A program made the position numbers and the translations under genes. The notes beneath the pieces were generated by a model. It had not been told where the DNA came from and made no database searches. It worked only from the letters and a program-made list of their open reading frames with translations. Positions 1,771 to 64,000 of a stretch of 64,000 bases of DNA are shown piece by piece. Position 1 is the stretch's first letter; each line of letters starts with the position of its first letter. This stretch comes from Amphiscolops sp. MND2022 (lineage: Eukaryota), in assembly GCA_964187785.1 (NCBI GenBank), contig OZ076409.1, positions 66,528,001 through 66,592,000 of the forward strand. The letters are read 5' to 3'.

Positions 1771-2224
1771 ATGCCTTCTCATGAGCTAGCTGAAGAACTT
1801 GATCCTTCCAACTCAGACCATGATGCTGATGGAGAGCATGTAGATGTCATACCGACATCTCCAACACCTAATGAAAATGATGGTAGAGTGAGTGAGACTA
1901 GCCAACAGAATCCATTGGATGACCCACCCCCGCCTTATGTAGAGTTCGAAAGTCCTCGGAACTCTAATGAGAACTTGGATGACGATGCAGTTTCTGGGGA
2001 TGATATACCAGTGGACAACATCATAATTGAAGAAGACAGCGTGTCAAATGAAGAGACATTTGACGCTCAGCAACGAAACGAAACAATTTATGAAGATGAT
2101 TTTCCGGTCGAAGTTTTATATAAACTTGATGAAATGATCAACCGACCGCGATGGGTGATTCCTGTTCTTCCTGGCGGTGAACTTGAAACTCTACTTAAAG
2201 CTAGCATAAGATTGGCAAAGCAAG
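1771..2224 (+). CDS. USP9X: USP9X coding exon 1
   Basis: ATG...[26 protein letters not shown]...KQ; donor CAAG|GTAATT; upstream acceptor TTTTCTAG at 1751. Confidence 0.9.
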
Positions 2225-32200: not shown

Positions 32201-35200
32201 TTTTCACTTTTTTCGGCACTGAGACTTCCCTCCTTTTTCGGCTTTGTGAGACTTTTCCGAAAATTTTTTAATGTCTCCAAAGGCTCCGTCTTTCAATTTT
32301 TTGATATTTCGCCAAATTGGATTTTCAAAAAGCCCAAAGCCCCTTGCAATTTTTGGAACTGAGATTTTTCCAAATGATTTTTCATCTTCGGATTTTTCCA
32401 AAATTAGGTTTTCTCAGCACGCTGTATCCGAATTTTTTTCAAGATCGGCGTTTTTTTCATGCGGGTTTTTCCTATGTTTTTATCGAAACCCCCTCTCGGT
32501 TTTTCTAGAAACGAAACGTTTCGCTCAATTTTCCCTTTTTTGAGAGGTTTTCGGTTGAGCAAGATGGGTTTTTGCTGTTTCCAGTTGGGGAAAAAGTGGT
32601 TTTTGAGTCATACGTATCGTTTCGGGTATTTTTTGGCGCTGTAAAATTGATGAAAAGTGTCCTTTTGCGTATTTAAAAAACTTTACCTTTTTGAACCTTG
32701 GAACGGCTGACTTGGGCCGTTCCCCTTGCTTGTTCATTTCCTGTTACCACCAAAAGCAATTAATTATATGTTATTTATAAATTGTTACATTGAGAACCGA
32801 TGCGATCTAGATCATTGGTACCTTTTCCAGCCAAAAAATCATTGTATCAACATATAGAATCTATAAAACGTTATCAAATCTTTTCCAATCAAGATTACTT
32901 TGTATTAGTTCATAGAATCAAAAATCAAAGTTGATAAGAGACGCTATGGAAATAGGACGCAAGGTTGTCTGAGTTTGAATATATTTAATTTTTAGTCGGT
33001 GCTATGTAGCTTTTTTCGACACTGTGCGATTGAGAACTTTTTCAAAATAAGATTTCTTGACGCTTTCAAGTACGTGTGCTTTTTGAGCCTATTTATGCCG
33101 TGGCTGGCTTGTTGACTAAAATTTATTCAAATACAGTCAATAATTTTTCATCCCTATGAATCTACCGTACCAGGCATCTAATCTCGCTTCTGCCCTGTGA
33201 CTCCCACGTGGCAGACAGAGTGAAGGCAGTGTGTGCTGATCACGCCACTGGCGAGGAGGTGTCACTCATGCCCACAGTCGAGTCTCTCTTCTTCTCCAAT
33301 TCCCCCAACCAGGTGCTATACTATTTGGAAGTGCTCCACGTCCTCTTGTTCCCCGCAGTCGACCCCCTCGGTGAAGAATCCAGATTGTTCCAAGTGAGTT
33401 TTCGTCATTTTGACATTCCGTGCTTGACAATGAACCCTCGCGAATGTTTGTACAACATTTCATTTTGCCTCATTTTGTAGATTCAGCACAGAGTGGGGTT
33501 TTTAACACCTCTCCGAGGTTTTTAACAGTTAACTAAAAACAAAAACTGCTGAAACTTAAAAAGTTGTTTTGAACAATTTAATCGCATTTTTCATCAGAAC
33601 GAAGCATCCTCATTATGAAAGCCAATTTCGTCGGTTTTTCTTGGCCGAGTGGATTACGAACGTCACTGTACATATCCCAGCGAAGAAAATGCTCTTTCAA
33701 TACCAGCAGATGATTGAGGCAAGTCAAATAAGACACATAAGTCGCCAATATCTTTAGTGATTTGGCCAGTCAATACCTGGGCTTTCACCCCAATTGACCT
33801 GGGCGTTTTTTTTTAAATTTTCAAAAAAATTGACAAAGAATTTTCAATCATAAATATCTCCAACTACGCGGACCTGAGGAACGAACTATAGCGCGTTTGA
33901 AAGCTTTGATATTGGGCTTTCATTTTGGTCAGCTGAGCCCCTGTCGCCGCCCGCCCCTTCCTTCAGAAATTTAGTTTCTTTCCGGTACCGCCGCTTTGCG
34001 GCAGTTCCGCACTTCGTGCGGCCCGCTGGGCGGCGGCTTGTGGTAACAACAGAATATTATAGGGGTATGTTGCACCAGGACTTGTGGCAGGGTATGTGGT
34101 TGGTTTTTTCTATTGATCAAAGACTTTTGAGAAAACTGGATTTCGTCAAAAACTGAATTTTGAGAAAATTTAACTATTTTTTGTTCAAAAAAAAAACATT
34201 TTTCTCAGTTTTGGAGACCTTTTTCTAATGCTTGTGCCATTCAAATCAATCTAGGTACCAATTACTTGTTGAAAAAAACTGTGCTAGAGAAAATGGGCTA
34301 CTGGCAAAAGGAATCAGAATTTGGAAAAAAGGTATGCTGCTTTAAAGCACCACTAGGTTCATTGGGGTTAACAAAATCTTCAACTTTGCAATTTACTTTG
34401 CTGAATGATTCTTTATAATCATCCTTTCTCGATCCCAAATATGTAATGAATTGAGAAATCAGTTATTCATTCGAAACAAGATCCTCCGCGTTTTTTATTT
34501 CCTTGGGAGACGTATTTCGGATGCAATAAATGGGCCAGAAACCATATAGGTGGTACTGAACGCGAATAGCGCTTTTCTGCAATTTCTAGTCAACACCATC
34601 AGCTATCGAGCTGTAATCAGCCTCGAGCACATCTAATGCTGCGGCAACAGGGGCGAGGCACTTTAATCCATCCTCAACATTTTTGTAGATTGCCAAATTT
34701 TTCAAAGTATCAGTTGCGCCAAGTAACCTTGATGAGTTTCCGTTTTCAATTTTTGTCACTCATCCTTCTGCTTGTAACCATGACATTGGCTGGTGACAAT
34801 TTTGAAATAGGGGGCGCAACTTCGTTTACTCGACTTACCAATTGTGATGATACCAAATCTTTTGCAAGAAGGTTGACCTGATGAGCAGCACATCCATATG
34901 CAATAAAGTTCCTTTTTAGTCGGCGCATTTTAGTAGAAAATGTGCCCGACTATTACAGTGGGTAGTTTTTTTTAGACACGAAAGGTCCACTTTTTTGTTC
35001 ATTTGTTCAACAACCTCAAACCTCAACAACTTCAAACCTCAACAACTCCAACCTCAGAAGCGCGTCCAAAACGAAAAGAAAAAACAAAACAGACGTCCAC
35101 AACCTCGAAATCACACTAAGGATCCCCCCACTTTTTTTCGGAACTATGCGACTTTTTGAAACTTTTTGGATTGAAATTTTTTCACCAAATGGTCCCCCCT

Positions 35201-38200
35201 TCAATTTTTAGGAGTCGGAAAAAATTTTCGACTACTTATGCAATCGTGCTGTTTTTTTTTCTTTTTGTTTTTTTCTCCCGACCTTTTCATGAAAATTTCA
35301 AATTTCTCAAAAACTGTCCATACGATTTTCACAAAATTTTGCACAGTCATTCTACACCCAAAGGGGCCCCTGCGTGTGCAAAGGCATCAAAATCGTATGG
35401 CCTGGATGTGAGAAACATAGCCAAAATTAGCCCAAAAATGGCCAAAAAACAGCCATTTTTCGACTTTTTTCGATTTTCTCAAAAACTGTCCATACGATTC
35501 GAACGAAATTTTCTACAGTTAGTCTACACCATATTAGAGTCCTATATGTGCAATGGCATCAAAATCGTATGGCTGGGATGTGAGAAACATAGCCAAAATT
35601 AGCCCAAAAATGGCCAAAAAACAGCCATTTTTCGACTTTTTTCGATTTTCTCAAAAACTGTCCATACGATTCGAACGAAATTTTCTACAGTCATTCTACA
35701 CCATATTATGGTCCTTTATGTGCAATTTCATTAAATTCGTATGGCTGAGATGTGAGAAACACAGCCAACTTTAGCCCAAAAATGGCCAAAAAAACAGTCA
35801 TTTTTCGATTTTTTCGATTTTCTCACAAACTGTTCATACGATTCGAACGAACGCGAGTCAGAAGGAAAAAGACTTAAGCCGACTCCTTTACCGCATATGC
35901 GGCTCTGGTTTTTGATGTTTTGCAACACAATGGATGTCAAAAAATCGCAAAGGGTCCCCCCTTTTACATTTTTCGGCACTGTGACACTGTTCAAAAATCT
36001 CATTGAGAAAAATTATTTTGGGAAATTTTTTCATGTCTCCTAAGGGTCCGCCCTTCAATTTTTTTAAATTTTTTTGCAACCAGCTGGAGTTTCACAAAGC
36101 CCGAAGGGTCCCCCTTTTAAATTTTGAGCCTTAGATATGGCGCCGACTTTGGCCGTTCTCGGCTTGTTTCTTCTCATTTTGACCATGTTCTCAGCATTGT
36201 CTGTTATAATTGCAGACACTTCAACACCAAAATCTTGTTTCATTTTGTCCATTTCATCTTCAGCAATGTCCGCCAAAATTTCACTAGTATGAGGAACCGA
36301 ACTAGCATCAATTGTCGAAATCAGATAAACATTTTATCAGATAAAGCAATTATTGACTCGTTCGAAATGTTGCTCCAAACATCCATGCAGATAGAAACTC
36401 GTTGACCATTAACGTTTTCCGCACATTTTTGTCCGCAAGTCGCTTCCGTGTGGGTGGCTTATATCCTGGGTTTAGTGCCTGACAATTCTTTAAACTCTCT
36501 GGACTCTACTGCTCGGAACGTCAAACTATTGGCAAAAAATTCCCACTTTCAGATCAAATTTATCTTGATCAGCTTTGCTTGTGGAAACAGTGAAATTTGT
36601 GATTCCGGGATGTTTTGGAGCTCTAGGGCTTTGCTCCCAATCTGTGTCATGATTTCCAAAGTGCTGGCGCATTTGTTTGGCGTTTCCAACCATCACTTTA
36701 TTGCACGTAATACATTCTGCTCTGTTTTCCCCTAGGTCTTGTCTTCCGTTAAAAAATTCCCAAATGGGGGTCTCGGGGTCGACCGTCACTCATTTCTACC
36801 TGAAAAAAAAACTTTTGAATTACCTGAAAAATTTTTGAATTGCGTTAAAAATATGTTAAAAACTAATGTTAATTAACGTTAAAAACATATGTTAAAAACA
36901 TGCGTGTTTTTAGCGTGCCCACCCTGATTCAGCAATCTGTTGCTTCACGTTTCCTCATGTTTTGCTCTGCCAGGGGTACTCGAGCGTAAATTAAGTGTAT
37001 TTCTTGGTTCTCCAAGATGAACGGTACCTAATTTGTGGTATTTCCCAGAGTTTCAGGTTCATATTTTGAAGAAATAGTAACAACAAAAATTGAGATGCTA
37101 TAACCAAGAGATGTGACAGCGAGAGCGATAGCGAAGTAAAATTCTGAAATTTAAATTAATATCTTGAAAATCGGTTTTTTTAATTAGCGATAGCGTTAGC
37201 GAACTCATTTTGTTGTAGCGATAGCGATGAAATCAAGCCATTAGCGATGTTAGCGATGAAGTGGTTAGCGATCACACCTCTGGCTATAACTATACCTATC
37301 TATCATGTTTCACTCGAGGCTGATTTATTTGAGGTTTTCTTCTCAAAAATTCTAAAGGGGGCTCAAGCTGGAGTGTTATTTATTCAAATAACAAAACCTG
37401 TATCCTCAGATTTGGATATTTTCATTCAAACTTATCCTTTTTACATTTTTTTTAGATTTCAAAAATTGTAAATGCTTTGAATCTACTTCGAGTTTATCCC
37501 AAAAAATGTAAGAATTGTATACTATTTGGAAATTCGTTGCATTTGAAGAAATTTTGTTGCACTCCGAAGGGTCTGATTTTCACATGTAGATATATGCAGA
37601 CGAATTGTAATAATGCCAATCAAACCACAGCATAATCCGGGTTTACCGATGGCCTAGGTTTGGCCTTAATGATGTTATAGTCTAAGGACGTTACAACCGA
37701 AGAACTTTATGCACTCTTAATAGAGCGCGGTGGAACACATATTACATTTATAAGCGGCTTGACTTAATAACCGGTGACGTTATCACCGGCTTACATTGTA
37801 AAAAAACTGTAAATTTTGAAATTTTTCATCTTTGTGCAGAAACATGAAGATTTAATTTTATAATTTAGGATCTCTTGCTTATTGAGTGCTTGAACAAAAG
37901 TCATTTTGACTGGTTCTTCCAGTCTCGTATGCCCACAAATCACAAGGTCTCAAGAAACCAGACGAATGAATCATTCATCGGAGATCATCTCTCCCTTTAA
38001 TTTTTTAATCTGTTTCAGATGCATTTCATAAAAGCCAGAGGAGTTGATGTCATTCTCGCCATGTTGACAAAAAACAACTTTCTATCCAATGCTGACATTT
38101 ATACTAAACGGTTAGTTGGTTGACCTTCTCCTGGAGCAAAAGTGAAGTGGTTTTCAGAATCGTTTCTTAACTTCTTCCTGAGCTGATCTGATTTACTTCC

Positions 38201-41200
38201 TTTCATTCAACTTTCGCCACCTCTTTAAGTGAAACTGTCAAGACCAAACGCGTTGCGAGAGGCGAAATTTCGTAATGAAGATCATTGGTATGGATACATT
38301 TTTTGCTTGAACAAAGTACTTTTTGCAGAAGTGCATACACTGTGGTGGTGAAAATGTCGAAGCTTCTCTATTGTTCGATCGGATTCGCGATTCTGCTCCA
38401 CTTGAAAAACTCACCTGATGCCCTGACATCTACTGCTTCGGCAACCTTTTCTGATGCAGATGGTGCTAAATCCTCGGCTGCTGCTGCCGCCCAAATCAAG
38501 TTCGAAGGCCTTGAGGTCTGGGGTTATCAAAAGTTGATTCTTCAGAAATGTTCTATTTTCCCTGTCAATTATTGTATTTTTCAAAAACCAGGTCTTCCAT
38601 GTTACCAAAGTCAGCTTGACAGTATCACGAATTTGAAGAAATTAAAATTTTTTCATTGGAACATTGTTTTCGAGCTTTCAAAGCTTATGATACCGGAGTT
38701 GATGTTTGAAAATCAGGTGTCTGAAAAACATAATAAAACTTTGATTTTCATTTTGGAAGGGTTGCGAAATATCGTTAAAAAATTGTGATATAAATTTGAT
38801 AATGCCTGCTGCTGAAGGTGGGAATGCGTTCAATCCCCAACTGCTTGGACAACATAATTTTGCGACAAGTGGCGTCTGTGTTGGCCTGCCACATGTACTC
38901 AAAATACTCATTATCGGAGACTGAGCAAATTATCCCTGACGAAAGCACCATCAAGTCGCTCTTCAAGTTGGCATGCTCACCCACTGGTTCTGTTACTTTC
39001 GACAGCTCCCATCATTTCTCAAGTCTGGGCGGCAGTGTTTCTGGTTGCGTGCCCCACAGCGAGGAAAACTCAGGACTCCCGGCTAACAAAGTGAACGCGT
39101 TGAAGGAACCCAGTCATGAAGATATAATGCTCTCATCGGAAGCTCTGGAGGTGTTAACCATCTGCTTCACTTTGAACCCATCACAGTTGGAAACGTTTTT
39201 GCAGAAGGAGCAGCAGTGGAATTTTTTGGTGCAAGAGATTCTAATCAAGTGTCCCGATAGGAGTCTGAGAGTGACGTGTTTGGATCAGTTGCTGTTAATA
39301 GCCACGCGGGCCAATGTGGCATCGCTACCACGTGTGGTCAACTTTTTTGTCTCAATTCTGCTGAAACAGATGACTTATGCTGCTAATAATGCCGACAGAA
39401 GCGACTCGTTCTTCAGGTCAGTTAATTAAAGCCTAGTTTCGAAAACAGATGAAACCAGACTGTTCTTGACTGTTTTTAGGAGTCGGAAAAAATTTTCGAC
39501 TACTTATGCAATCGTGCTGTTTTTTTTTCTCCCGACCTTTTCATGAAAATTTCAAATTTCTCGAAAACTGTCCATACGATTTTCACGAAATTTTGCACAG
39601 TCATTCTACACCCAAAGGGGCCCCTGCGTGTGCAAAGGCATCAAAATCGTATGGCTGGGATGTGAGAAACATAGCCAAAATTAGCCCAAAAATGGCCAAA
39701 AAACAGCCATTTTTCGACTTTTTTCGATTTTCTCTAAAACTGTCCATACGATTCGAACGAAATTTTCTACAGTTATTCTACACCATCTTAGAGTCCTATA
39801 TGTGCAATGGCATCAAAATCGTATGGCTGGGATGTGAGAAACATAGCCAAAATTAGCCCAAAAATGGCCAAAAAACAGCCATTTTTCGACTTTTTTCGAT
39901 TTTCTCAAAAACTGTCCATACGATTCGAACGAAATTTTCTACAGATATTCTACACCATATTAGAGTCCTATATGTGCAATGGCATCAAAATCGTATGACT
40001 GGGATGTGAGAAACATAGCCAAAATTAGCCCAAAAATGGTCAAAAAAGGGCCATTTTTCGACTTCAGAAGGAAAAAGACCTAAGCCGACTCCTTTACCGC
40101 ACATGCGGCTCTGGTTTGATTCCATGTTTTCTCGTTTTTTTATCAGTCATATTCCGAGTTCTATGCAAAAACATCGTAAAATCTCAGGTATGAGCGCCCA
40201 CGGTGTATAAATCTCAATAAATTTTGCGCAGTAGAGAAAATGCTTCCAGTATATTACGGAGGCGTCATTACCGCGTAATTTTCTTGTTTGTTACAAAATT
40301 TTGGTTTGAGACAGCGCTGAAGAAAAAATAGGATGCGGGTTTACCAACCGTTTTCAATGTCTCATAGAATGTCGATGAGCTACAGTTATAATGTACCGAA
40401 GTTTGTCCAAAAATTTCCAAAGTCTAGTGCGCATGTTTTCCACAATAAGCCGTAGTGGTATGAAAAGTACCCTCGATTTTGTTGAAAGATAGATCAGGAA
40501 GTTTAGAAAAGTTGATGTGGATCTGGAACCGATGTTATGAACGTTGACTTGATTTAACTGCTTTAGATTGGTGTGCAAGTTGTTGGAATACGCGCGATTC
40601 CTCAATATATCGATTGAGAACTTGTCGCAATACCTTTCGCAAGAGATCACCTTCATAGACGAGACTAGAAACAACTGGCTGTCTGCAGTGGGGGTCGAGA
40701 AGGAAATGACGTTACCACATGATTTTTTTCTGTGTGGCAGACTTAATTTATGTCGCGAGCTGGTCTCCTTCACCAACGACGAGGTCGACAAGATCGTCCC
40801 GGGGTGCTCTTCGTTGATACAGGTTAATTTGTTCGTTCACTAATTAACCTTAAGCTGTTTATAAAAGTTAAATTGTAATGAAATTCTTACCTTTCAATTC
40901 AAAACATTGAATGAATTGAAATTTAGGTCGATAGAATTGAAATCAGGGGTGAGCAAATGAATATTATAATATATTGGACCATGTGTTCAATTTCACGACC
41001 CCCCCCGCCCAGGTACACCTTGTTGGGAGTTTCCACTCCCCACCCCCAACACGAAACCACATTTTGTTCTTGAATAAAAATATGAGAATATTATATGAAT
41101 GTATATACTTAGAGGATTGTCTCCACAACTGTTCGGACACTTCAGGCAAAAAAAATACCATAATTTTTTGGTATTATTGTCCAAAATAGCAGAAATTCAC

Positions 41201-44200
41201 GTTTGGAACAAGCTAAAATCGTATAAAAAAGGCCCCTCTTTCAGCGCAAATTTTGTCCGTGATTAAATCTAATGAGCAACTTTTTACTGACAATGTCAAT
41301 GTAATGGATAGGATTATCTCGACATCAATTATTTTATTGGACCAAAATTTCAACGCAAACGATGTCAACATAATGGTATTTGAACCTTGAACCTTGTCTT
41401 ATCCCCCCCTGTGGCCGCTTGGAGGGGAGGATTGAACATATGGTCCAATATATTGACTTTAAGAGACTCTATTGAAATCGTCATTTTATTTTTCACCATT
41501 TTGAATGAATAATTTTCATTCAAGATAAAGTGAAAGTAAATGAAAATGGGATCTTCTCTGTTAATTCCAAAAACTTATTTGAATGAATTTTTATACGCTT
41601 CTAAATATAGTAACTACAATCATACATTATTACTTGTCAACCTTAAATTGAATGTCAAAATATATTGGCCTGAAACACAAATACATTGGAACAAAATATA
41701 TACATGTAATTTAAGCTGAGAAAATATACTTTGCTTTTTTGAGAAAGTGTTTAAAGAAAGTGTACGATTGGGGCCTTTTCCGTTAATTTATTTAATTTTC
41801 ACCCTCTTGTAACACCATGTAAAATTGAATTTGTACAGAAAAGCGCCACCACGTCAGCAACAATTGCATTAGCGTGGCTTTCGCTCGCTCGCTTGCCTTG
41901 CATTTAAAATTGAATGCTAGCGCAGGCTTGCAAAATGACGATTACGTCACGCACTTTCTCACATTATTCCAAACACAGCTAGCTGCTGTTGAGCGAACGA
42001 TGTGTACTAGCTATTCAACTGTCTCTGTATAATTTATGCTTTTCGTTACAAACTGAATTTATCAAACTTGAAAATTAGGCGAAGTTATAAGTAAAGGTAC
42101 AAGTATATATTTCGAGTGATACCTAAAAATAATGGGCATTTTCACAAAATGGTGTGTTTGAAATTATATACATTGTAATGATTTGTCACCTCCGCCATGC
42201 AAGTAATAAAGAAAGACTTGATGTAATTAAGATCATACTTCTAGAGATCATTTCTAGAGTCTGCATCTTCGCCTCTTTTGGCAAAATTGATGACTTTCAT
42301 CAGCCCGATGATGACGGATGGATGTCTGGTCAGAGCATGAAGATGTCATGAGGGGAAACCTTCGATGACGTTGATGATTGCTTCGTGCTCCTTGGGGTAC
42401 AGAGACCAGGCAGCTATCTGAGGGCTATTTTAATTCCTTGAAAATATGTTCATACAAGTAAACAAATGAATTCTTTCACTCTGTTAATCAATTGATCTCT
42501 CCTATAAAAATCCCCAATCAAAAACGATGATATTTCATACATGTATTTAAAAGTGTTTCACTTTGTCTACCCCTTTTGTGCCGTATTTAAAGGATAACAC
42601 GGTCCCAAAATTGAATCACTATAGTAGTTATAACGATTAGATGTATGTAATTGCTTTCAGGAGTTATTCTTCGATTTCTTGTTCCCGGCCACCAAGGCGC
42701 TGCATCAGAACGAGAAAACCCTGTCTACATCAGCACAGTCTCAGCCTCTATTCGACAAGTGTAGAAATATCAAGCCGATATGCGACCAGTTGTTAACGCA
42801 AAACGCAGCGTTCCAGCTAATCATTGCCCTGTCAGAACGCAGTTTCGACAACTTCAGATTTCTCGTGCAGATTTTGATGGACTCCTTTTACAGCCGCAAT
42901 GTGACCACCATCACTGAATGGGAATTCCAGCCCCCGATCGGCTGCAAAGCCCCGGGTGGTTTCGTGGGTCTCAAAAATGCAGGTGCTACTTGTTACATGA
43001 ATTCAGTTATTCAACAGCTTTTCATGGTGCCCGAAATCCGGGAAGGCATTCTGTCAATTCCTGGAATCGCCGACGAGTACCGGGAAAATGACTCGGCCAT
43101 CGACTTCAGCTCCAGTTCAGTCGCGGGAAGCAGAGCAAATGACTCATCGAGCTCAGGATTCAGCTCAGCGGCGAGGTCTCTTGAACACGACGTGGAAAAC
43201 CTGTCCTTATCTGCAGTATCAATATCATCTCAGCTGGCTATATCCTCAAATTCTCAGGCAGGCATTAGGAAATATTGAACGAAAATCTAAATATTGAACG
43301 CCTAAATTTAGCGGTAGCAAATAAGGGACACGCAAATCAAATTTAGCGGCCCAAACTTAGCTTAGCACCATTCGTTTTTAAGATGGCTTTTCTCGACAAT
43401 TACAATAACAGTTGAACACTCAGCGATATATTAACAATCAGCATTTGATTCAATAGAGTTTTAATATTGGCTGTATGGCTGACCTTCCGTGGCGCTGTGC
43501 GCCCCCTTGTTCGGGCTTCATCAAAACCAGTCGCTTCGCTCCTGCATTTATGGCACCATAGCAAGTTCATTATACTGGTCTATTATCTCTGTGGTATTTT
43601 GTCCTTTGGTTTGGTATTTGTCCCCTGGTATTTTCTGGCATTCTGGCGTAAAAATGTGAAGTCAATATATAATGCCAAAACTAATGCCTGGCTGAGGTTA
43701 GGACGCGCGGGTCCAATATCACATAGAGGTGCTCAAGTATTTGCAAGTAATTTTCGGCTACCTGACTGCCAGCCAGCTGCAGTACTACTCGCCGGAGGGT
43801 TTCTGGAAGCACTTCCGGTTCGCAGGAGAACCTGTCAACCTCAGAGAACAACAGGACGCCCTCGAGTTCCTCAACAGCATCGTGGACAGGGATGTTAAAA
43901 TTGCCATGAATATGTATTATAGATTTACTATAGGACACATATACTTTTCTTGTATAAATCGTATGCTCACAGGAGGAAAACATTTTCCGAATTTTGTAGA
44001 TTTTTCACAGGGTTGGCTGATTATAATCATTTCAATCCACTATTTCAATCGTGATTCATTCAATTTGGAGGTGGATAAGTTATTTGATCATTTTCTTAAA
44101 TCAACATTTTCTTACTTCCGTTCCGAGCACTGGGCAATTGAAATGCGTATTCATCACTTGGTTCATTTGGAAAATTAATACCAATTGCTAGTTGAAAAAC

Positions 44201-47200
44201 TAAAACTTGTTTTTTGATCCAATTTTTGAAATAAATTTACTTTTCAGCGTTCCGATTTTTGGTGTCAGAACATTTCGACCTATGCAATTTCGACCTATGC
44301 AATTTCAGTTGCTGACAATTTTAACCTATTGCTTTTTCAACCTTCAACGAATCTTGACTCATTGATCCTAATTCGCCTGAATTATTTCACGACGACAATA
44401 GTTATAAATGAACCAAACTGGTCACATCATTTGTATTTATTCATGAAGAATCATTTCATGAAGAATCATATTCATGAAGAATCATTTGTATTTATTCATT
44501 GTATTTATTCATTTGTATTATTCACGACATCTCCTGTAATACTGTTTTTCGTCGGCGCCTTTTCCCTTAAGGAAAAAAGCCCGACTCTTACAGTGAGTAG
44601 TTTTTTTTCAGTTGACAATCTCACTCTTTTACAATCTTTTGTTCCTTTGTTTTCTGAGAAACTTAGTTTTTCACAACTAATTTTCTGAGAAGCAGGAGGT
44701 CGTGGGTTCGATTCTCTCACTAAACCACAAGTTTTTTAGGCTCTTTTCTGTTTTCCCCCCCACCACCAATTTTTTTTTTGGAAAATTAGTGAAAATCGTA
44801 TAACAAAAAGACTTGAATACAAACCAGAGAGCTTCAAATTTACATTCATTCTTAATGTGACAGTTTAGGATTCAGATACAAATTTTGTTCACACTTTTTC
44901 AATATGTAGTCACGCATTTTTGATGAAGAAGTCATCAGCTTCCTGTTTTGAGTCATCAATAAACGTTTAATACGAACACAATTATAGTCAAAAAGCGTGA
45001 ACAATGTTTTGTTAAAGCAAAACACTATTCCAATAGACGTTAACTTCCCATTATGAAAGAAGAATTTACTTTTAATTAGGCTAGTCTAAAGTTTTTAAGG
45101 AAATTTACTTCCAAAAATTTTGGTGGTGGGGGGGAAAACAGAAAAGAGCCGTTTTTTATGCTTCCAAAAGTAGAGGCGAGACCAAAAGGTCCCCCCTTTG
45201 GGTTTTTTTCGGCACTATGCGACTTTTTTCGAAAATTATCGAATTCTATCAAAGGGTACCCCCTTGCATTTTTTTGAAGTTTTCGGTTTCTAAAAACGTT
45301 TCATGAGCCTAAATGGCCTCTTTTCTAAGTTTTTCGGCATTGTGCGACTTTTTTTAAAAAAAATACTTTTTGAAAAAAAATTTTCCAAATATTTCCAATA
45401 GTTGTTCCTTGAATATTTTTGTGCCTTAGATATGGCGCCGACTTGGGACGTTCCCGTCTTGTTGATCGTTTGAATGATGATTTAATCACTTCTAAAGCGT
45501 GTGCAATTTTTTGCTGAAGCTTATCCCAACAATTTTTACCGGCCTATATTCATTATTCCGAAAATGGTTTTTTTTGCTTTTGTCGATAACATGCAATGAT
45601 TTTTTGAATATAACATCTCTGGACGTTGATAGTGTGGACGAGGCGACGAAACATCTGGGAATCTCACCCTCAGTGTTTTCTGCTATGATCGGGGGGTCCT
45701 TCGCAGATCAGAAGATATGCAAGGATTGCCCGCACAGGTACTCTAGGGAGGAGCCGTTCACGACTGTGAGTGTGGACATAAGGAACAACCAGACTCTGAA
45801 GGACTCGTTCGAGCAGTATGTGAAGGGCGACTTGTTGGAAGGAGACAACGCCTATTTGTGTGAAAAGTGTGGCAAGAAGGTACGTATCACATCTGTTGCA
45901 TAGTCTGAGTCAAAAGATCAGATGATTCAAAAAAGTCGGTTTAGGGATAGTCAAGTGACCTGCAATCAGTGAATTGTACACGATACACGACAGGATACAC
46001 CATTTTTTGCTTTGTGATACACGAACCTATACGATACACGATTTTTTGAAATATACACGAAAAATACACGATAATTAAATTGAGCGCGTGAATCTGGCAA
46101 TTGAACGTAGGAATTAGCCATTCCAGCAAGCTCAGGAGCAGCCAAAAGGCTATTTTCTCAATGTAACATACGATGCGCAAATAGAAGAAACCGTATGTTA
46201 CAAAAAACTTGGAAATTTTGGTTCAAATTGCTGTTTATAATGAGCAAATTGAAATTCAAACTTCAAAGTTTTTTTTTATTTTTCAGTAAAAAATACACGA
46301 ATATACACGATTATACACGAAAATACGCGATTTTTTAAAATACACGAATACACGTAACGGTTTTTGCAAATACACGATACACGAAAAACTTGATACACGA
46401 CAATTCACTGCCTGCAATGCTCCCCATTGTGCACTTTTACATATATTCTTCCGAATTTACTATCGTTTACTATGAAATATGTTTATTTGCTCTCGCTTTC
46501 AATTTTGATTGTCACATCAAGTGAAATTCATGTAAATTGAGGAAATTTTATCTTTTGACCCTGATATTTCGGAAACGGTTGATCATTTTCGAAATCAAAA
46601 TACATCCATGGCTTCAGTAGATTTGTGGGCGGTAATCGAAAATAAAACTTGCCAAAACGTCTGTGGACGGTCAAAAATTATAAAAACGATAAAAATCCCA
46701 ATTTTGCTAAAAATCAGCTTTTTGTAACTTTTCCAATTTTTGTCTCAGAAATTTTTCTTTAAAAAATACTAATATAAACTAGATGAAATTCTAAGAAATT
46801 TTTACTTTTGATGTTTTTCAAAAATTTTAATCAATTTCTGGAAAATCAAGCCTAAAATCGCCTAGGGGATGATTTCTTAATCACAGTACTGTATAACTTG
46901 CTTCAATGTTTTCGAGTTGTTGGAAAAATTAATAACTGTGTACATATACATGTATACTGTGCGTAGGGAGCGGCTCACTATGCAGACGGTTCACTAAGCC
47001 GACCAAATAAATTCATTCTCAGCGCGTGATTAAATTCAATCTGAACGCGCGATTAAATTCATTCCCAAATTTCATTGGACAAATACATATTCCAAATAAC
47101 AGTACATGTAAACAAGATTGCGTCAATCAACAACGTAGTCAGCTATGGTCACATACCTCTAGTGCCCTAAATGCAGGAGCGAAGCGAAGCGAAGCGGAGC

Positions 47201-50200
47201 GACGTGCCATATGGCCATGCCTCAATTTTGCTACTTGGCGAAGGGAGCGAAGCGACCGAGCCATACAACAGATATGCTAAACTCTTTAAGGAAATAAATT
47301 TATTTAATGACCTTTTTTGGTCGGCTTAGTGAACCGTCGACTTAGTGGAACCCCCCCCCCCCTGTGCGTAGAGCGCCAAGAAACGCAAATGTGACTTCTG
47401 TGTCGGTTTTGAATAGAATTTTATTAGAGCACTTAACGGAGTTATTAGTTACAGTTATTACGAAGTGAACATCGGGTGAAATGAAGTCGGTTGACATGAT
47501 AGGCTAGAATGATTCTGACTCCATTTTCGCACCCGAACTCCGATCTCTTTTTTGAAGATGGAAAATGTAATTTTTTTGAAGGTGGACACAGTGAAGAGAA
47601 TGTGTATCAAGAAGCTGCCGCCAGTGCTCATTATCCAACTAAAGAGGTTCGACTATGATTGGGAGAGAGATTGCGCCATCAAGTTCAACGACTACTTCGA
47701 GTTTCCCTTCCATTTCGACATCGAGCCGTACACTGTCGACGGACTGGCCAAAATTGAAGGTTTTATACGCATATTTGATAACCTGCTGAAAACTCTTAAG
47801 ACGATGGAATAAGTGCTTGATTTTTGTGCGCTGGAGTGAATGGATGCGTTTGTGGTATGTGTAGGCGACAACTTCAATGAATTTCAGAGACACATGTTAA
47901 GCTTGACTATTTTGCAACTAGTTATATTGCCTATTTAGAGTTTTGATTTTCCAATGTGGTTCAGCTGGTTAACAGTTCGCGAGTTATTCAATTCCTTGGG
48001 TGTTTTTTATTTGGAATGCGGTTTCGCGGTCTCTTTTATAGTTTGAAAGTTTCAGGGCAATATTAATGTGGTGTTTAGTCATCAATTCAATTAGTCGCTG
48101 CCCTTAAAAGAATGGATTCCATCAAATGTGCGTATCCAACTTACAGGACCTTCGTAGAAATCTATTACATCCAAGGACCTTCAAAGCTTCTTTGAAGGAA
48201 TCCACTCCCCGTTCCCGAAAACCTGAGGAGAAGAAATATTGAATTCATTGTCCATCTTACTCGCGGTTTCGTATTTTCTGACAATATGTTCATGCCTCAA
48301 ACTTGTTTCAGTGTTACTAGTAAGAGCAACATTCACCGTAATTCGTTCTTAGGTGAAATAATCAGAGACGACTCTTTCGAGACACCACCACAACTGTCCC
48401 CTACATGTTCGGGTCTGGCTGTGAGTGAAGAGATGTCTTCTGGTCTGGGCAGTAAGGAGTCTCTTAGTATCCCCACGGCTACTACACCCGACTCAGAGTT
48501 CCCCCCTGACGTGTCTTCTGCCCCCCAATTGGGGTCAACTTACAAGCTTATGGGGGTAGTCGTTCATAGTGGACAGGTAGAAACCACTTTTTGTTGCAGC
48601 TAAATAATCCGTTCTTTGATTCACCAAATTATTACTTTCTCGTTTCAGTTCACTGTTCAACTACCCGGGTTGAAACTCCGTGCAAGTCGTAGTACGATCT
48701 CGCTAAAATTTTAGCCGTTATCGTGCGACGATTCGTATTATTATGATTGGCGTATTAAGATTAATACGAGATTATTAAGATCGTAATAAGAAATCTATGA
48801 TTGAGTTCATCTACATGTCCGCAACACACCCCAGTAAAAGATCGCTTTCAACAGTTTTCTCAAGCTCCAAATTTTGAATGAAGAAATCAGATGAATACTC
48901 CATTTTTGGCAATTTACAAGTTACTAGGCTATGATCATTTGTTATACCCCAAGTTGATAAAAACGCTATTGCAAAAGCAGAGGGTGCCTTGAAAAATTTA
49001 GTGAAATGAATGAATTAATTTATTCATTTCACTAATTTTTCAGGCGCTCTCTACTTTTACAATAGTTTTTAGTTACATAAATATGCTGCATAATTGCCAT
49101 GCTTTATCATTTACTGTAAGAAGACTTAACAAGCAGGGAACGGCCAAAATCGGCGCTATATCTAAGGCTCAAAAAGCGCAAAGTTTTTAAAATTGTAAAA
49201 GAGGGAACCCTTTGGGCTTTTTGAAACTCCAATTTGTTGCAAAATATGAAAAAAAATGAAGGGGACCCTTTGAAGACAAGAAATTTTCGACAAAGTTTTA
49301 CCATGAGATTTTTGAACAGTGTCACAGTGCCGAAAAATGTAAAAGGGGGGCTCTTTGGGATTTTTTAACATCCATTCTGTTGCAAACTATCGAAACAATT
49401 GAAAGGGGACCCCTTGGTGCAATGCAAAAATTTTCGATAAAAGTCTCATAGTGCCGAAAAAACTAAGTGAAAAACACCAAGATAGCCAAAGGGGATCCTT
49501 AGTATGTTTTCGAGGTTCTGGACGTCGGTTTTTCTGTTTTGGTTCTGAGGTTTCTAGTGTTTTGAACCTGTGTAGTTCAAGTTGTTGAACAAATGAACAA
49601 AAAGTGAACATTACGAGTATAAAACTACCCACTGTAAGAGTTGGGCACTTTTCTTCAAAAGCGCCGACTAAAAAATGCTTTTCGTGGTATGAACTGCATG
49701 ATTGATACGATCTTGCTACGACCTTACTACGAGAGGCGCGATAGGGTTGTGAGGCAGTGATTTATTTGTCATTGAGCATTTCGATTTTGTGGAAAAGCTC
49801 AATTTGGTAAAGCCGATTCGACAAAAATTTAACAGGAAAAATGTTGCTGTGAAAAACGACTAGGGCCTGAGAAGTTGTATGCATTGTCATTCCAGAGAAC
49901 TCAGCGGATGCATTTTACAAATAGACTAAGAAAAATCTCGACCCGACTTTTTCAAACTTTTCAACTTTCGAGGATTCATAATAGAACGAAGGCTGTATTG
50001 TACTATTTTTCTAGGCATCGGGTGGTCACTACAACAGCTACATCCAATGCAGAGAAAGAGACCCACTAGCCAACAAAGGTCAATCTGGCAAATGGTTCAA
50101 GTTTGACGATGGAGATGTGTCCGAGCTACACATTGATGACGAGGCCGCCGAATTACGTAATCAGTGGTTCGGAGGAGATAATGTCGCAGAACAACTTAAT

Positions 50201-53200
50201 TCTTCGTTCACGTCCTTTGACCAGAAGAGGAATTCAAGTTAGTCAGAAGCGCTTTTCAGTCGGCGACTTTTTGCGACTCTTAGTGGCAATTTTTAAAGTA
50301 GAATGAAAATTTCCTCTCTGAAAAGTCCACTTTTTTACAATCTTTTAGACTGAGATCTAAGGAGGAGTATTAACAGACGCCAAAGGGATCTTTGTTCATT
50401 GAAGCCACCAGATGTGATTTTATGACCTTTTTTTGACAGCATAAATGTAATAATTTCGATGTGCAGCTCAATTTTTGGATTGCGAAAACGTTATTTTCCA
50501 GGAGTTGGAATCTCGGTCTCCTGTCAGTTTCAGTTTCTATGTAGAAATGTGCTTCTTGAAGGTTTTCTCGGAATACAATGTAAACACAGTAAAATCCGTT
50601 GAATTCGTATCTAGGGAAATTTATGGCTATCCTACCCAATACTGAGTTCTGGTTATTGATATTGATTTATTCAATCTGTGAAACTACGAATTACCTGGAT
50701 TCCTTCCATTGAATCTCTCTGGTTGTCCTTGGCCCATTGTTTCATTTTTGTTTTAATTTAGGTCGACGACAGAAGCGTTGGTGGAACGCGTACTTGCTTG
50801 TCTACGAGCGGCGGCAAGAGCTCAGTGACCAGACTAGTCCTGTGCAGCTGTGCAATATGCAAGCATCCGCTTTGGCCACTGCTCACAGGCCACACTCACA
50901 GGATCACCACCTGAAGCTGGTCGATGTCACCTCGGATGAGTCATCGTTGACCTCTTTCGACAGCGAAGAAACCACTTCAGCAAAAGGCTGCTCAGACAAT
51001 AATAAAACCTGTGTCCCCAATAGTTCAACTTCGTCCAAGTCTTCTCTTCATCTTTCTATAACCAGCTCTTCTCAGAATAACAACAACAACAGTAGTAATA
51101 ATTGCCTCTTGAAGATGCCACCGTCCATTTCGAAAGCTGTGGAACAGCAGACTGTCAATTTTGCCCACAATAAAGTTCAGTTCATGCCAGAGTATCTGAA
51201 CTTTGTTAAAAATCTGGTCTCAAGTTGCCAAGGTACGGGTGTGCGTGCGATAGTTTTCTGTATCAGTTGATTTTTTATATCACTGATGTCGAAATTTTGT
51301 TTTTGAAGTGTTTTGCTGTTGCTGAAGTGTATCCATGTTTCTTCTACATGATAATGAACATAATCAAGTTTGTCGTATAAGCTCAGATAGTTCTAACCGA
51401 ACTTGTTCAAAATTCAAAGCTGAAAATAAATTCAATTAATCAGGCGACAGATGTGCAGAAAAACTCATGTTCTAGAATCAGGCCGGTTTTTTGTGTTTTG
51501 TCTAAAAAACACCATTAAAAAATCCAGCGCACAGAAATGAATTTGTTTTTAGAAATGTAGAAATTCAATTTGGAGTATAGTATATTTATCATAATCAGCG
51601 ACACCGCACGCCCGTATGCGAATAAATCAAGGCTTCATGATGGACATTCGAGAGGTCAACAATCAAGGTCAAACGGTGGCCGACCAGTTTGGGATGCTGT
51701 CAATGCAACTTCTGTGCAATGTCGTCTTCAACACTGTGCTGCACACGAAGAAGGTTCTCCGCGGGCCGGCCCATGATTGGACAGATTTGATGATCACGCT
51801 ACTGAAGCATGTGGCATGCACAAGAACGTGGCTGGCGGAGAACTGGATTTTTAAGTACAAGAAATTAATATCCGAGTACATTTTGGACTGTCCATCTGCC
51901 GAAGTTCGTCAAGCTATTGTCAAGTTACTTGTGTTTCTCTGCCACTTTTCCAACTTTGATGGGCCCTATCTTACAATACAGCAACGTTAGTGTTTAAAAA
52001 CCCTAACTTTTCTTGCAAGGTTCAGAAAGTGCAAGATCTTAAAAATATGATTTGGGCAGATTTAAGAAAATTGTGAAAATTTGTGCCGAAAAGAGGGGAC
52101 TCTTCTATAATTAACGCATTAAAAAATTTTTTTTTTTAAATTTTTTTTAGCTGAATCTTTGAATTCCTCCCACATATTCAGCCGAAGTAAGTCTCTTAAA
52201 GTCTGTGAAAATTGGACTGTAATGTAATTCTGTGGTGCGGAGAAAAAACTATTGACTGTAGCAGTCGGACGCTTTTTCTTAAGAAAACACTGACTAAAAT
52301 TTTAACTGAAACTTTTAAATATCTTTGATGCATTAGAGTTCTTGCGACTCTGCAAAGTGTCGCAACGCTGCCAAAAAGACTGCATTTTATTGAAGTGCCC
52401 ATTCTTCTGCCCATTTAACTGGTTTTCCTCTTGGTTCTTGTTGGTAATCTCCGATTTGAATGGCCATATTAGAGCAGTAGAATTTTAAAAAGTCCAAAAA
52501 AACTCATTTAAAATGATCGCTCAATTATAGAAAGGAAATTGGCTCGCAAAAGAAAACAGCATGAAGTGTTTTAATTTAGCCATGTAAATCTAATCATGCT
52601 GTTATCACTTCTTTAAGTTCAACTATAGTAAGAAATGACCCAGAGCCAAGTTTCTGACTTCGATATCTCGGAATATCTAAGTTGTCAATTTCTGTAAAAA
52701 TCAGAGGAAACTTTTTTGACCTTGTACCGGAAGTTAATTCGCTGAAAAATTTGAACACTCAGTGGGAGACAGAAATGTTTTCTTTGTGTGCAGGTGAGAG
52801 TGGCAAGATTTTGGCGACACATGCGAGTCTGAAGCTGAGTGACTACATAGTGAGTGAGATGGCGTCTCTGATGCGCAAAGACGTGAAGGAGTCCTCGAAG
52901 CACCTCAACCAGTACTTCCACTTCTTCCTCCACTACTGCTCTTTTGGGCCCGACCAAAGGTGCTACCTTACTCTGTCGTTATCACTGAACTGCTGGTTTT
53001 TACACACAAAAATCACATATTGCTATTCATTAAGTTGAAAAATTCTCAGCATTAGATAGGTTTTCCCTGTCTCGCAAGACGTGGATATGACGAGAAAATA
53101 TGCTATATCCGAAATTTATTTATATCGTATATCTGAAAATCTTATTATTATGAGTTTATTCGTAAAATACAAAACTCCGATGGCGGTTCAATTGAAACTC

Positions 53201-56200
53201 CCGCTTTTTGACTTTGAAGATGTGCAAAGACAAAAAATGTGCCAAAAAAAGCCTACATGCGAATTTTGATCGTTATAACCCAACTATATTACGTTATATC
53301 AGAAAATGTTTTCAGTATTAAGTTTGACAACTTGAAAAAAATTTTACCTCCGCGGGATCCAAAGGTTTGACACTTTGCCCACCAAATAGACTTGCCCAAC
53401 TAATCTGAGTAGCCACTGTACCAAGTGAATAGGACATATGTTCAGAATGAACTCATTTACTTGAATTATAGTCAAAACTAACTTCTGTCAAATTTTGATG
53501 AAAAAAATATCCCCACTGAAACTATTTTTTTTGTTTTTCCGGGAACAAAAAATAAAGATTAGTAAAAGCTTTGAATTAGACATTTTCTCATGCTGTGTCA
53601 AAGACTGAAATGGGCCTGTTAAGAGCTTGAGAGTATTCAAAAACACTATAGGTAGCCTGGAACTCCCTAAGTAGGAAGTCAAAACTGCTAATCGTTTGGT
53701 GCCAACTCTATTAAATGAACCATGTGGTATTTTCTTCGGCTTTTTGTCGTCAGTAATTGACCACTTCTTTTTTTCTATATACCGTATTTCTTCGAATATA
53801 AGTCGCCTCCGAATATAGGCGGCCCCCGATTAGAAGCCGTATAAAGCCTGAAAATTTTATCCTAAAACCATAGCTTTCCGTATTTCTTCCAATATAGGCC
53901 GCGAAATCATTACGAAAAACAACATACAAGCCGCGGCCTGTATCCGAAGAAATACGGTAAACAGCTATGAATATACAGTCAGTTTGTTTCCAAGTGATGT
54001 TTGTTTTGGTGTAGGTGTCAGCTGCTGAAGCGAGACGTGCCTCTGCTGATGGTGAATCTGGTGTTTGAAGAGAGCAACAACCAGATCAAGTACCAGACCT
54101 CGGAGTTCGCCAAACTCTACCAAGTTGTCTCTATCCTCGTCAGGTGCTGCGACCTCATGCCTTACTGCGAGCCTTCGTCTGGCAAAGAAGTTTGTACACA
54201 CAAAGCCATCTATTGAAAAAATCTTCATGTCTTTTGCAGTACCTTCTCGATCTTTTTGATTTTTGAAAGAGGCTAGTGAACTTCCTGTCGTCTCCGACAA
54301 TCACTCAAGCAAAATTCTGTTCATTTCTCGTATTGCGTTTCCAAATTATCGGAAGGCCCAACTTTGTCATAAATTTGCTCTTAGATGTCTCGAACTTTGC
54401 TTGGTAAGGCCTACTCCGGTGTTTTTTTTAAATCCTTTGGTTGCCGAATGGTTCACCGCGGTTCCAAATTTTTGGATCCATACATCAAAACCGTCAATCA
54501 TACCTGAAGAAATTGTAATCGAGAAATTGAGATGTACATCTCCATTTCTCGATTACAATTTCTTCAGGTATGATTGACGGTTTTGATGTATGGATCCAAA
54601 AATTTGGAACTGCGGTGAACCATTCGGCAACCATACGTTGAGTGCCTTTGCATTCATCAAATTAGATTAATTCGGTTCTCTGATCGTAGAACTTTACCTA
54701 ATATAAGTTGCGATTGATTTGCTTTGTCTTACTTTCAATTGCATTTTGGCACATGAGGAACGACCTTAAGAGTAAACCTATAGATGTCATAAATTTAAAT
54801 GGCATCAATTACATTTTTTAGTGATTTTTTTAAAAACATTGTTTGTAAATCGTCATGTGTGCGAAATGTCAGTAGATGTTTTATAATCTTCTTTTGGCAT
54901 ATTACTGTAGCATTTCTGTTTACGTTTGGTGTTTTAGATTCATCAAATGATGGCGAATCGGTACGGAGACCGAGACTTGGAGATACCGGTGCCAATCTCG
55001 GTTGGTCTCAAGGAGCGGTTGTTGGATGAGACAGTGTACGTCAAGAGAATCATCGAGGAGTGCCCCAACACCGAAGAAACCTGCTTCCTCATTTGTGTTA
55101 GTCAATAAACTGCATTTTATGAAACTGAAAATGAACAGGCTTATTTCATTGTTCAATTCGTTTTTTTCTCAGACTTGTATCGTCAACATTTTATTCCCTG
55201 GCTTAGTATCAGTTTTTTTCTTGTGGTACTTCAATTCTATTGATGGATGTTTTTTAGTCGGCGCTTTTCTTGAGAAAAGAGTCGACTATAGTCATGGTTT
55301 TTCGTCAGTGTTTTTTTTTCGATACACTTGAAGTGACCAAAATAGTTCTACCAAAAGTTCTACAAAATTTTAAGACGCAAAATTGTACCTTTTGGCCTAG
55401 GGAACTGGACTATAAGAGTTGTTCCTTTTTTAGCATAACATACAAAACTGGATGAGACTAAAGGGTACAACGTCATCCCTTTCAGTTTTTTTCGACATTG
55501 CGAGATTTTTTTCACCAAAAGGTTCTCCCTTCAATTTTTTTTATTTGCGACAGAATGTATGAAAAATCTCAAAGTGTCCCCCCTGGCGCGTCAACCGATC
55601 CAACTTTTGGGTTTCTCGGGTACTGTGGAAGAGAATACTTTGACACTTTGAAGTCCTTTTGCTATTTTTGAGCCTTAGATATGGCGCCGACTTGGGCCGT
55701 TCCCGGCTTGTTTTCTTATGAACTTAACATAAACATACCAGCCTGTCGATAGGCAAACATACCAATGATGTCCAATTATATTCTTTTTAATTCAAAATTC
55801 AAGTTTGAATTGAGAATTCTATAAGAAACATAAATTGAAGTTTAAAGTGGCTGAGAAATGAAATTTAAAAATCACTACACGTTTGATGGTAAAATTGCGG
55901 ACCAAAGTTTTTTGAAAACAAGCCGGGAACGGCCCAAGTCGGCGCCATGTCCAAGGCTCAAAAATAGCAAAAGGACTTCAAAATTTCCAAGTATTGGTGA
56001 ATTGGGACTACTTTTATGAAAAAAATTTAGAAAAAAAGTCTCACAATGCCAAAAAACTGACAGGGGGGACCCTTTGGGGTTTTTCAACATCCATTCTGTC
56101 GCAAAACATCAGAAAATTGAAGGGTGAAAAATTTTTTATTTTCGGAAAAAAAGTCTCACAATGCCGAAAAAAACTGAAAGGGAGGACCCTTTGGGATTTT

Positions 56201-59871: not shown

Positions 59872-59985
59872 ATGTCCTAAAGCTCTAACTTCGTATATTT
59901 AAAATCAATTGCTCTATACTGGAATCAGTGTTTTCACTCACTAATGTAAATTCGCTTTTCTAAAATTGATTTTCAGATGTAAGTT

Positions 59986-62900: not shown

Positions 62901-63970
62901 AACACTACCTGAAAACATTTCAACAGAGCGGGGTTTCCAAAAACGACGTGTACATGGACTACATAAACAAAAAATTAGTGGCTGCCCAGGATCAACAATC
63001 GCAAAAGGTTTGAAAGACGTGGTTCGCTTCCTGGAGTGGAAAAGAACCGAACGCCCGGGGTGTTTTACTGAAATCGAACACAGTCTAATGGAGGAGCAAA
63101 AACGTAACCTGAGTCGATTGGTCTACCTTAGCTCGAACTGTTACTCATACGACAGAAGTCTTATAGCAAAGTACTCTGAAATTCTGTGGCAGGAGTCGAT
63201 AAACAATACGTTGTCGCTAGAGGGAAAAGCGAACATCCCAAAGGTGTCGTGCGAGCCCTTACCGATTCCACCGGACTTCTCACGACTAGATGAAGTGCTG
63301 TATATGAGTTTATTTTATGAAAACAATACAATGTACCATTTTCTTTGGCAACGAAGTCTGGTAGAATCGCCCCTATGCCGATGCATGGAAGATATTCAGA
63401 CTGTAGAACACATTTTGTGTGATTGTCCAATGGTAGAAGAAGATGTGAAGCGTCAACTAGATGAATTCAACTGGAAGAACCTGGGTTACGGGCGTGCAGA
63501 CATTACAGTAGACCTTTTGAACTGTTCGAGGAATCCAGAATTAGCAACAATTTGCAAGAAGATTATAAGAAACCCGAAGCTCAAATTATGGCAGCAGAAA
63601 TAAGAGACAAACAGAAGTAGCTGGTTATCATAAAGACGAATGGAATTTGCAAAAAGAACAAGCGCTCCGAAGAAAGCGCATCAGAGAAATTATAGAGAGG
63701 TCAAAACAAAGCCAGAGTACCTCTATGGACACTAAAATGCCCACAGTAGGCAGTAAAAGAAATCATCATCATCATTATATCCGAACTTCTGAAGCGTTTT
63801 CCCAGCACGGAAGGCTTCCTTTGGGTGAAACTTTTTTGTGTGTTCTAACCCCGTTGTATTTTTTCGGCACTGTGAGATTAAGAATTTTAAAAAAATCCTC
63901 GACGTTTTGAAGTACTTTTGCTCCTTTCGAGCCTTGAGCGGGCGACGACTTTGCCGTTCCCTGCTTGTTT
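59986..63970 (+). mobile_element. HINE family A copy interrupted by another family A copy (about 60039-60538) and by a LINE; a further copy begins near 63970
   Basis: Family termini at 59986, 60039, 60538 and 63970. Confidence 0.7.
61062..63775 (+). mobile_element. 5'-truncated LINE (I/Jockey-group-like RT), nearly intact ORF2 with one frameshift near 63010
   Basis: KEGKTSY..AGAYRPIS, DFEKVYD, GLPQGSVISP, KFADNG, C-terminal CRC..TVEHILCDC; (CAT)n tail at 63761-75; 12-bp TSD TATATCCGAACT (61050-61, 63776-87). Confidence 0.9.
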
Positions 63971-64000
63971 TTAGTCGGCGCTTCATGAAGTGAAACGCGA

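Follow-up and report, generated by a model that had tools for sequence, protein, structure and literature searches.

We analysed a 64,000-nucleotide stretch of DNA from Amphiscolops sp. MND2022 (assembly GCA_964187785.1, contig OZ076409.1, forward-strand positions 66,528,001 to 66,592,000; hereafter the window), which carries a gene for a USP9X/FAF-like deubiquitinase whose intron 15 very probably begins with GG and is bounded by the inverted repeats of a transposon-like element. By mapping homologues onto the window we modelled 27 coding exons and 26 introns; intron numbers and counts follow this refined model, in which exon boundaries were set against the homologues. Once the introns are removed the frame runs for 2762 codons with no stop or frameshift, and the donors comprise 22 GT, 1 GC and 3 GG. 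The model shares 94.3% identity across 2729 residues with P0155, a 2830-residue protein from another species which carries the Pfam families ARM_UBP24_USP9X-Y, UCH and DUF3517, and whose 8805-nucleotide contig is, judging from its size, presumably a spliced transcript. The gene and the features around intron 15 are as follows.

1771..59811, plus strand: USP9X/FAF-like deubiquitinase gene
43702..43889, plus strand: exon 15, the same as P0155 at all 62 residues, its last three nucleotides CAG (43887-43889) being also the first three of the element
43890..45632, plus strand: intron 15, 1743 nucleotides, GG-AG, phase 2, placed mid-helix in the catalytic domain
45633..45879, plus strand: exon 16, 99% identical to P0155, matching human USP9X 1715-1795 of 7YXX
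43887..43897, plus strand: 5′ terminal inverted repeat CAGGGATGTTA, which holds the GG donor at 43890
45611..45621, minus strand: 3′ terminal inverted repeat CAGAGATGTTA, occupying the usual place of the T-rich tract
43879..43886, plus strand: left copy of a putative 8-nucleotide target-site duplication, exonic
45622..45629, plus strand: right copy of the putative duplication, intronic and decayed
45630..45632, plus strand: TAG acceptor, by length arithmetic a candidate host exon triplet
44739..45150, no strand assigned: nested element with 49-nucleotide inverted arms, presumably a later insertion
43894..43895, plus strand: rival GT donor with 4 of 9 consensus matches, pairing with a GAG at 45640-45642 and deleting two residues

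The nearest named relatives of the gene are Symsagittifera roscoffensis XP_063715438.1 and Convolutriloba macropyga XP_075258285.1 (~60% identity), both from Acoela, which places the window in an acoel; longer named USP9X-type proteins of other animals share about 31-42% identity. A quick tree of 20 proteins grouped four acoel proteins with a support of 100, and an earlier tree that held no named acoel proteins left the gene unplaced. Downstream exons are 88-100% identical to P0155, so the gene looks alive, and conservation is equal before and after the first GG intron.

Exon 15 ends in ATC GTG GAC AG at 43889 and intron 15 opens with GGATGTTA at 43890; it closes with GTTGATAG at 45632, after which the next exon opens T GTG GAC GAG. 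These coordinates and sequences agree with the first-pass annotation, made from the letters of the window, which had read a GG-AG intron here, held that its removal restores NSIVDSVDEA in the catalytic domain, and named a canonical alternative from GT at 43894 to GAG at 45642; this alternative is indeed in frame and gives a protein two residues shorter (NSIVDRDATK). We compared 16 in-frame joins within 75 nucleotides by scoring each against three related full-length proteins, and the GG-TAG join obtained the top score against all three. Human USP9X reads NSLVDSLDEALK at the junction (PDB 5WCH, 7YXX). The motif QxDAxEF is found in 111 of 120 homologues, and in 110 of these 111 a D/N-E/D pair follows exactly eight residues on, the lone homologue off register having a substitution and not a deletion; the corresponding SVDE register is also kept in relatives at 94-98% identity. 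The GG join preserves this register and the GT join does not. The local D-E register served as our criterion because the spacing from QxDA to GGSF, at 33 or 31 residues for the two joins vs. 32 in 105 of the 111 homologues, did not discriminate between them. In an AlphaFold2 model of the relative P0156 (mean predicted local distance difference test score 60, about 80 at the junction) the junction residues D106/S107 lie inside helix 94-114. The GG donor itself matches the donor consensus at 7 of 9 positions, and a junction shifted left by 1-2 nucleotides, which yields an identical mRNA with ends further from the consensus, was rejected. Judged by this comparison of sequences, intron 15 is very probably a genuine GG-AG intron.

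The first-pass annotation had further pointed to an 11-bp complement of the donor ending 11 nucleotides before the intron end; its location stands, with a match of 10 of 11, and what it left unsaid was the nature of this complement: a terminal inverted repeat of transposon type, of which it forms the 3′ arm. The arms at 43887-43897 and 45611-45621 differ from full complementarity by a single mismatch, a G-U pair in RNA. With the register left free, 15 of 3000 random position pairs reached an inverted match of at least 10/11, as did 6 of 650 mismatched intron-end pairs; at a fixed register, which was chosen post hoc, the figure was 6 of 300,000. The element spans 43887-45621, or 1735 nucleotides, and 1735 + 8 gives the 1743 nucleotides of intron 15; a putative 8-nucleotide duplication followed by the host TAG would account for the 11-nucleotide offset of the arm from the intron end. 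The end-to-end duplex of intron 15 has a predicted energy of -19.8 kcal/mol, below 99% of mismatched pairs, and the two ends folded singly gave no local structure (z -0.59 and +0.57). Dispersed repeats at 44541-44627 and 45177-45463 inside the intron are also presumably later insertions, and the nested insertions together with the decayed duplications indicate that the insertions in this gene are old.

The termini are short inverted repeats that open with (C/T)AG, as in the hAT consensus and the Ac terminus; our literature search found no paper printing the Ac repeat or covering Ds splicing. A target-site duplication of 8 bp is known for Ac/hAT elements (PMC3744419). By its termini and the putative 8-nucleotide duplication, the element is probably a non-autonomous DNA transposon with terminal inverted repeats of the hAT superfamily. 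A young 444-nucleotide element lies in intron 16 (45967-46410), with CAG...CTG inverted ends and a perfect 8/8 duplication, and resembles a hAT-like miniature inverted-repeat transposable element (MITE); elements of such build have thus been active.

As expected of an intron made by an insertion of this kind, termed an introner, the orthologous site is empty in relatives. We examined 79 loci at the intron 15 site, 72 of which cover both sides: 70 read through and 2 break a few residues later, in a set where some of the 72 may be transcripts and 44 are interrupted elsewhere. P0156, a genomic open reading frame (ORF) of a close relative (97.8% identity, 138 residues), reads across introns 14 and 15, as do two genomic ORFs that match the named acoels, P0001 at 98% identity (Symsagittifera) and P0158 at 100% (Convolutriloba), so intron 15 is a gain in the lineage of the window on the simplest reading. 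Intron 14 is missing from the same three sequences. P0125 (93.8% identity, 738 residues), which must be genomic because its ORF continues past the exon where intron 9 would begin, reads across introns 7 and 8, and intron 8 is likewise absent from both named acoels; a search of 50% representatives added no relative beyond P0125. Genomic ORFs of the Symsagittifera type read across intron 20, though their identity around it is weak.

Four other introns of the gene have ends bounded by inverted repeats, two of them with GG donors (a slash marks the splice site).

31896..33173, plus strand: intron 8, GG-AG, donor AAG/GGATGA, 3′ arm ending at 33156, 10/11 inverted match
58484..59559, plus strand: intron 26, GG-AG, donor CAG/GGATGA, inverted arms of about 21 nucleotides, duplex -28.8 kcal/mol
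43258..43701, plus strand: intron 14, GC-AG, a different inverted repeat with a 13/14 match
51233..51631, plus strand: intron 20, GT-AG, inverted arms just within its ends, duplex -29.9 kcal/mol

The best GT or GC alternative would cost the protein 24 residues at intron 8 and 9 at intron 26, so these two introns need GG donors whatever holds for intron 15. At intron 8 the GG recurs in a read-through ORF, P0152, present on two contigs, and is not private to one assembly, because exon 1 on one of these contigs is a variant that differs from the window. The G at +2 is mirrored in the 3′ arms of all three GG introns, which argues that it came with the element and is neither an error nor a decayed GT. 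In all three the exon closes with AG, the intron has G at +1 and A at +3, and the acceptor is YAG, the sequence features of U2-type GG-AG introns. At a threshold set post hoc, inverted ends of at least 10/11 were found in 4 of 4 non-GT introns vs. 1 of 22 GT introns (Fisher p = 3.3e-4). Duplexes formed by the ends of introns 8, 14, 15, 20 and 26 range from -19.5 to -30.5 kcal/mol, vs. -9.7 +/- 3.3 for 650 mismatched pairs, and the 3′ T fraction in introns with paired ends is 0.27-0.40, vs. mostly 0.5-0.7. The motif [CTA]AG[GA]GATG has five copies on the plus strand of the window, three of them at the GG donors, and its reverse form has two, one at the 3′ end of intron 8 and the other at that of intron 15. 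The geometry of 8 + 3 nucleotides at the 3′ end is seen in intron 15 and, by spacing, also in intron 20; in the latter the outermost bases mismatch despite the -3/11 spacing, and the protein would be 11 residues longer if an in-frame CAG at 51598 served as acceptor.

Our preferred account, to which as a whole we give a probability of about 70%, is that intron 15 was made by a transposon and that the major spliceosome excises it with GG-AG ends. An element with terminal inverted repeats would have inserted into the exon, duplicating 8 nucleotides. Its first three bases, CAG, would have stayed in the mRNA in place of the host TAG, turning GAT AGT into GAC AGT, which still encodes Asp-Ser. The donor would be position 4 of the terminal repeat, CAG/GGATGT, one base off a strong consensus, and the acceptor the host TAG just past the second copy of the duplication, so that the length of the intron equals element plus duplication while mRNA length and protein remain unchanged. 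Such insertions would survive only where a suitable NAG follows, in a lineage that tolerates G at +2. By the donor consensus, CAG/GGATGT pairs with U1 except at +2 and +4; this pairing and the YAG ends of the three GG introns favour the major spliceosome with relaxed recognition of +2. Every GG cut falls at AG/G and ends in YAG, as in spliceosomal introns.

Several observations weigh against this account. The duplication matches at 5 of 8 positions, for which chance is about 0.034 at fixed register, and no recognisable duplication was found in introns 8, 14, 20 and 26, where the distance from arm to intron end is 17, 7, 11 and 9 nucleotides vs. 11 in intron 15. The three GG introns share termini and nested repeats within the 64 kb, with no unique interior in common, and neither the ends of the element nor its unique interior has a second copy in the window. 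No trace of a transposase was seen: 7 intronic frames gave 0 Pfam hits (8 of the 16 listed ORFs were scanned), as would be expected of a non-autonomous element. An exon 15 search returned P0001 as its sole match, which leaves the GG at 43890 without confirmation from a second assembly, and an exact look-up of 10 read-through ORFs gave one match, in the frame of exon 16, on one contig. The score of the rival GT, 4/9, equals that of two accepted GT donors of the gene, and donor strength by itself thus cannot exclude it. Finally, all five introns with inverted repeats can pair their ends, as a mechanism directed by structure would predict.

That last point belongs to the alternative which survives best, namely the same insertion and the same mRNA with excision guided by pairing of the arms, whether by SOS splicing (AKAP17A, CAAP1, RTCB), by a hybrid of SOS and the spliceosome, or by pairing that aids a weak donor. 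Paired inverted repeats are described as the trigger of SOS splicing, which also has hybrid forms that use a canonical acceptor (PMC12779559); intron 15 likewise has inverted repeats able to pair at its ends, the five end duplexes are far stronger than mismatched pairs, the repeat-bounded introns do without a T-rich 3′ tract, and the arms have stayed complementary though the duplications decayed. The same source reports SOS splicing as imprecise, with insertions and deletions, and as rescuing genes only in poorly conserved regions, whereas the conserved helix at intron 15 needs a precise join; moreover, its arms are just 11 nucleotides long and 1.7 kb apart, and AG/G and a YAG end recur at all three GG sites. 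We regard excision guided by the arms as unlikely, if worth keeping in view.

Rather more doubtful is canonical splicing in a protein that tolerates the change, either by the GT at 43894 joined to the GAG at 45642 or by the GT at 43914 joined to the TAG, the latter with eight residues added. Both joins are in frame and GT-AG, and most animals use GG donors very rarely (PMC5714493), but the first shortens by two residues a helix that keeps its register in 110 of 111 homologues and in the 94-98% relatives, it uses a GAG acceptor found at none of the 26 modelled introns, and introns 8 and 26 require a GG donor regardless. It is harder still to credit an ordinary GT intron in which the T at +2 was misread or mutated to G and the inverted repeat arose by chance: CAG/GTATGT, one base away, would be a near-perfect donor and the base lacks confirmation in a second assembly, but AG/GGATG is common to three donors of the gene, every one of them with its +2 G mirrored in the 3′ arm, a second contig (P0152) also has GG at intron 8, and intron 15 is absent from all relatives examined. 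That the insertions go unspliced in a dead or truncated gene copy is scarcely credible given 2762 open codons and undiminished exon conservation after the first GG intron.

Beyond this gene, we lean slightly towards a genome-wide class of GG-AG introns derived from repeats and cut by a relaxed spliceosome. We hold it improbable that there was a genome-wide burst of gain from hAT-type elements carrying GG donors, amounting to about a tenth of introns and still dependent on arm pairing, as a domesticated, precise form of SOS-like splicing.

Other features of the gene bear on its intron history. Gains were not all repeat-bounded, since intron 7 (29355-30659), a plain GT-AG intron, has no detectable arms yet is absent from P0125 and both named acoels. 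Genomic ORFs such as P0001, P0158, P0127 and P0169 show that the named acoels lack many introns of the gene. One of these is intron 16, and a genomic ORF of another animal (P0124) ends where it lies; from these sequences, intron loss in the named acoels and gain in the lineage of the window both seem to have taken place. The 3′ end of intron 11 (38516-38817, GT-AG) and the 5′ arm of intron 14 agree at 10/11, and both its splice sites lie within similar 8-mers containing AG/GT; it is possibly an older gain from the repeat family of intron 14 with both splice sites supplied by the duplication. AAG acceptors occur in 3 of the 26 introns, at 38817, 47581 and 51631. For the last ~90 residues of P0155 we found no convincing match in 59812-64000 of the window, the final coding exon being either diverged or outside it, and a CAG/GG occurs at about 59831, just past the modelled gene end.

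Repeats are widespread in the window. The dispersed family represented at 45177-45463 recurs in about a dozen other places (for example 17058-17316, 55917-56194 and 60263-60538), and introns 8 and 15 both contain nested copies. At 54481-54590 and 55293-56520 lie elements whose inverted arms are long and whose 8-nucleotide flanks are identical; these flanks are palindromic and may be parts of the arms rather than duplications. An open frame in intron 2 (11182-11565, minus strand) resembles what we take to be a protein fragment of a retrotransposon without long terminal repeats, with an internal duplication. A U3 small nucleolar RNA lies within intron 13 on the strand of the gene (42229-42426, plus strand; Rfam RF00012, 102 bits).

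In humans GG donors make up ~0.01% of introns, and no origin was stated for their abundance in the copepod Eurytemora affinis (PMC5714493). Introns derived from transposons are already known, as are GG donors, and what appears new is their link: the gene suggests where rare GG splice sites can come from, with a concrete source in the terminal repeat of a transposon and the empty site preserved in relatives. It becomes testable whether GG and GA donors of other animals are relics of terminal repeats, and whether exonic insertions first rescued by splicing that inverted repeats trigger can mature into fixed, precise introns. Old GG-AG introns would easily be missed because introner surveys start from annotated introns of similar sequence, and in this acoel such introns will disrupt the gene models. 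A link between GG donors and transposons was not found in our literature search, most subscription journals and the supplements of introner studies lying outside its scope.

Among known systems, introners come close: as the accessible texts describe them, elements with terminal inverted repeats and a target duplication carry one splice site, co-opt the other and keep mRNA length (bioRxiv 10.1101/2022.06.06.494994, PMC12130899, PMC11282704), as in our gene, and their positions are species-specific, as here. The element in intron 15 makes up about the whole intron, with termini at the splice boundaries (arms -3 and 11 nucleotides from the ends). Introner surveys, in their accessible portions, name GT, GC, GA (and AT) donors but not GG, the donor seen here, and describe multi-copy families similar in sequence and mostly short (median 30-654 nucleotides), whereas the introns here are 1.1-1.7 kb, old, and have only termini in common within 64 kb. 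Introners were found in only two animal groups of the 2022 set, in the available text (bioRxiv 10.1101/2022.06.06.494994).

GA-AG introns are described from Eurytemora and Oikopleura dioica in the accessible part of one source (PMC7072748). Eurytemora has GA and GG donors, the GG ones following an exon that closes with AG, having A at +3 and being needed for full-length proteins, and it resembles our case in lineage-specific positions and in about 12% non-canonical introns, compared with 3 of 26 in this one gene (PMC5714493). Its GG donors number four among the 25 of 36 donor sequences available to us, all YAG/GGA and none GGATG (PMC5714493). GA outnumbers GG there by 31 to 5, whereas no GA donor occurs here, and the paper proposes no transposon origin, whereas every GG donor here lies within a terminal inverted repeat (PMC5714493). 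Compared with maize Ac/Ds (hAT), the element here comes without a transposase hit or family consensus and with a decayed duplication, in an intron whose splice appears to be exact and which is fixed in an animal gene.

Two acoel genome papers, in their available text, make no mention of non-canonical donors, and one of them gives hAT as 0.9% of the genome and found no intron made solely of a transposon. SOS splicing, as its accessible description has it, is alike in that an exonic DNA transposon is removed from RNA near paired inverted repeats, with non-GU-AG ends and hybrids that use a spliceosomal acceptor, but it is imprecise and heterogeneous and was tested on elements of the Tc1/mariner type (PMC12779559), whereas our gene requires an exact join and has introns with spliceosomal-looking ends. 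In Fritillaria borealis, again in the accessible text, AG-AC and AG-AT ends dominate, whereas introns here are mostly canonical and the odd ones GG-AG; it nevertheless offers a parallel in its MITE-derived non-canonical introns, which are bounded by terminal inverted repeats and target-site duplications, sit at species-specific positions and are served by an adapted spliceosome (PMC11282704).

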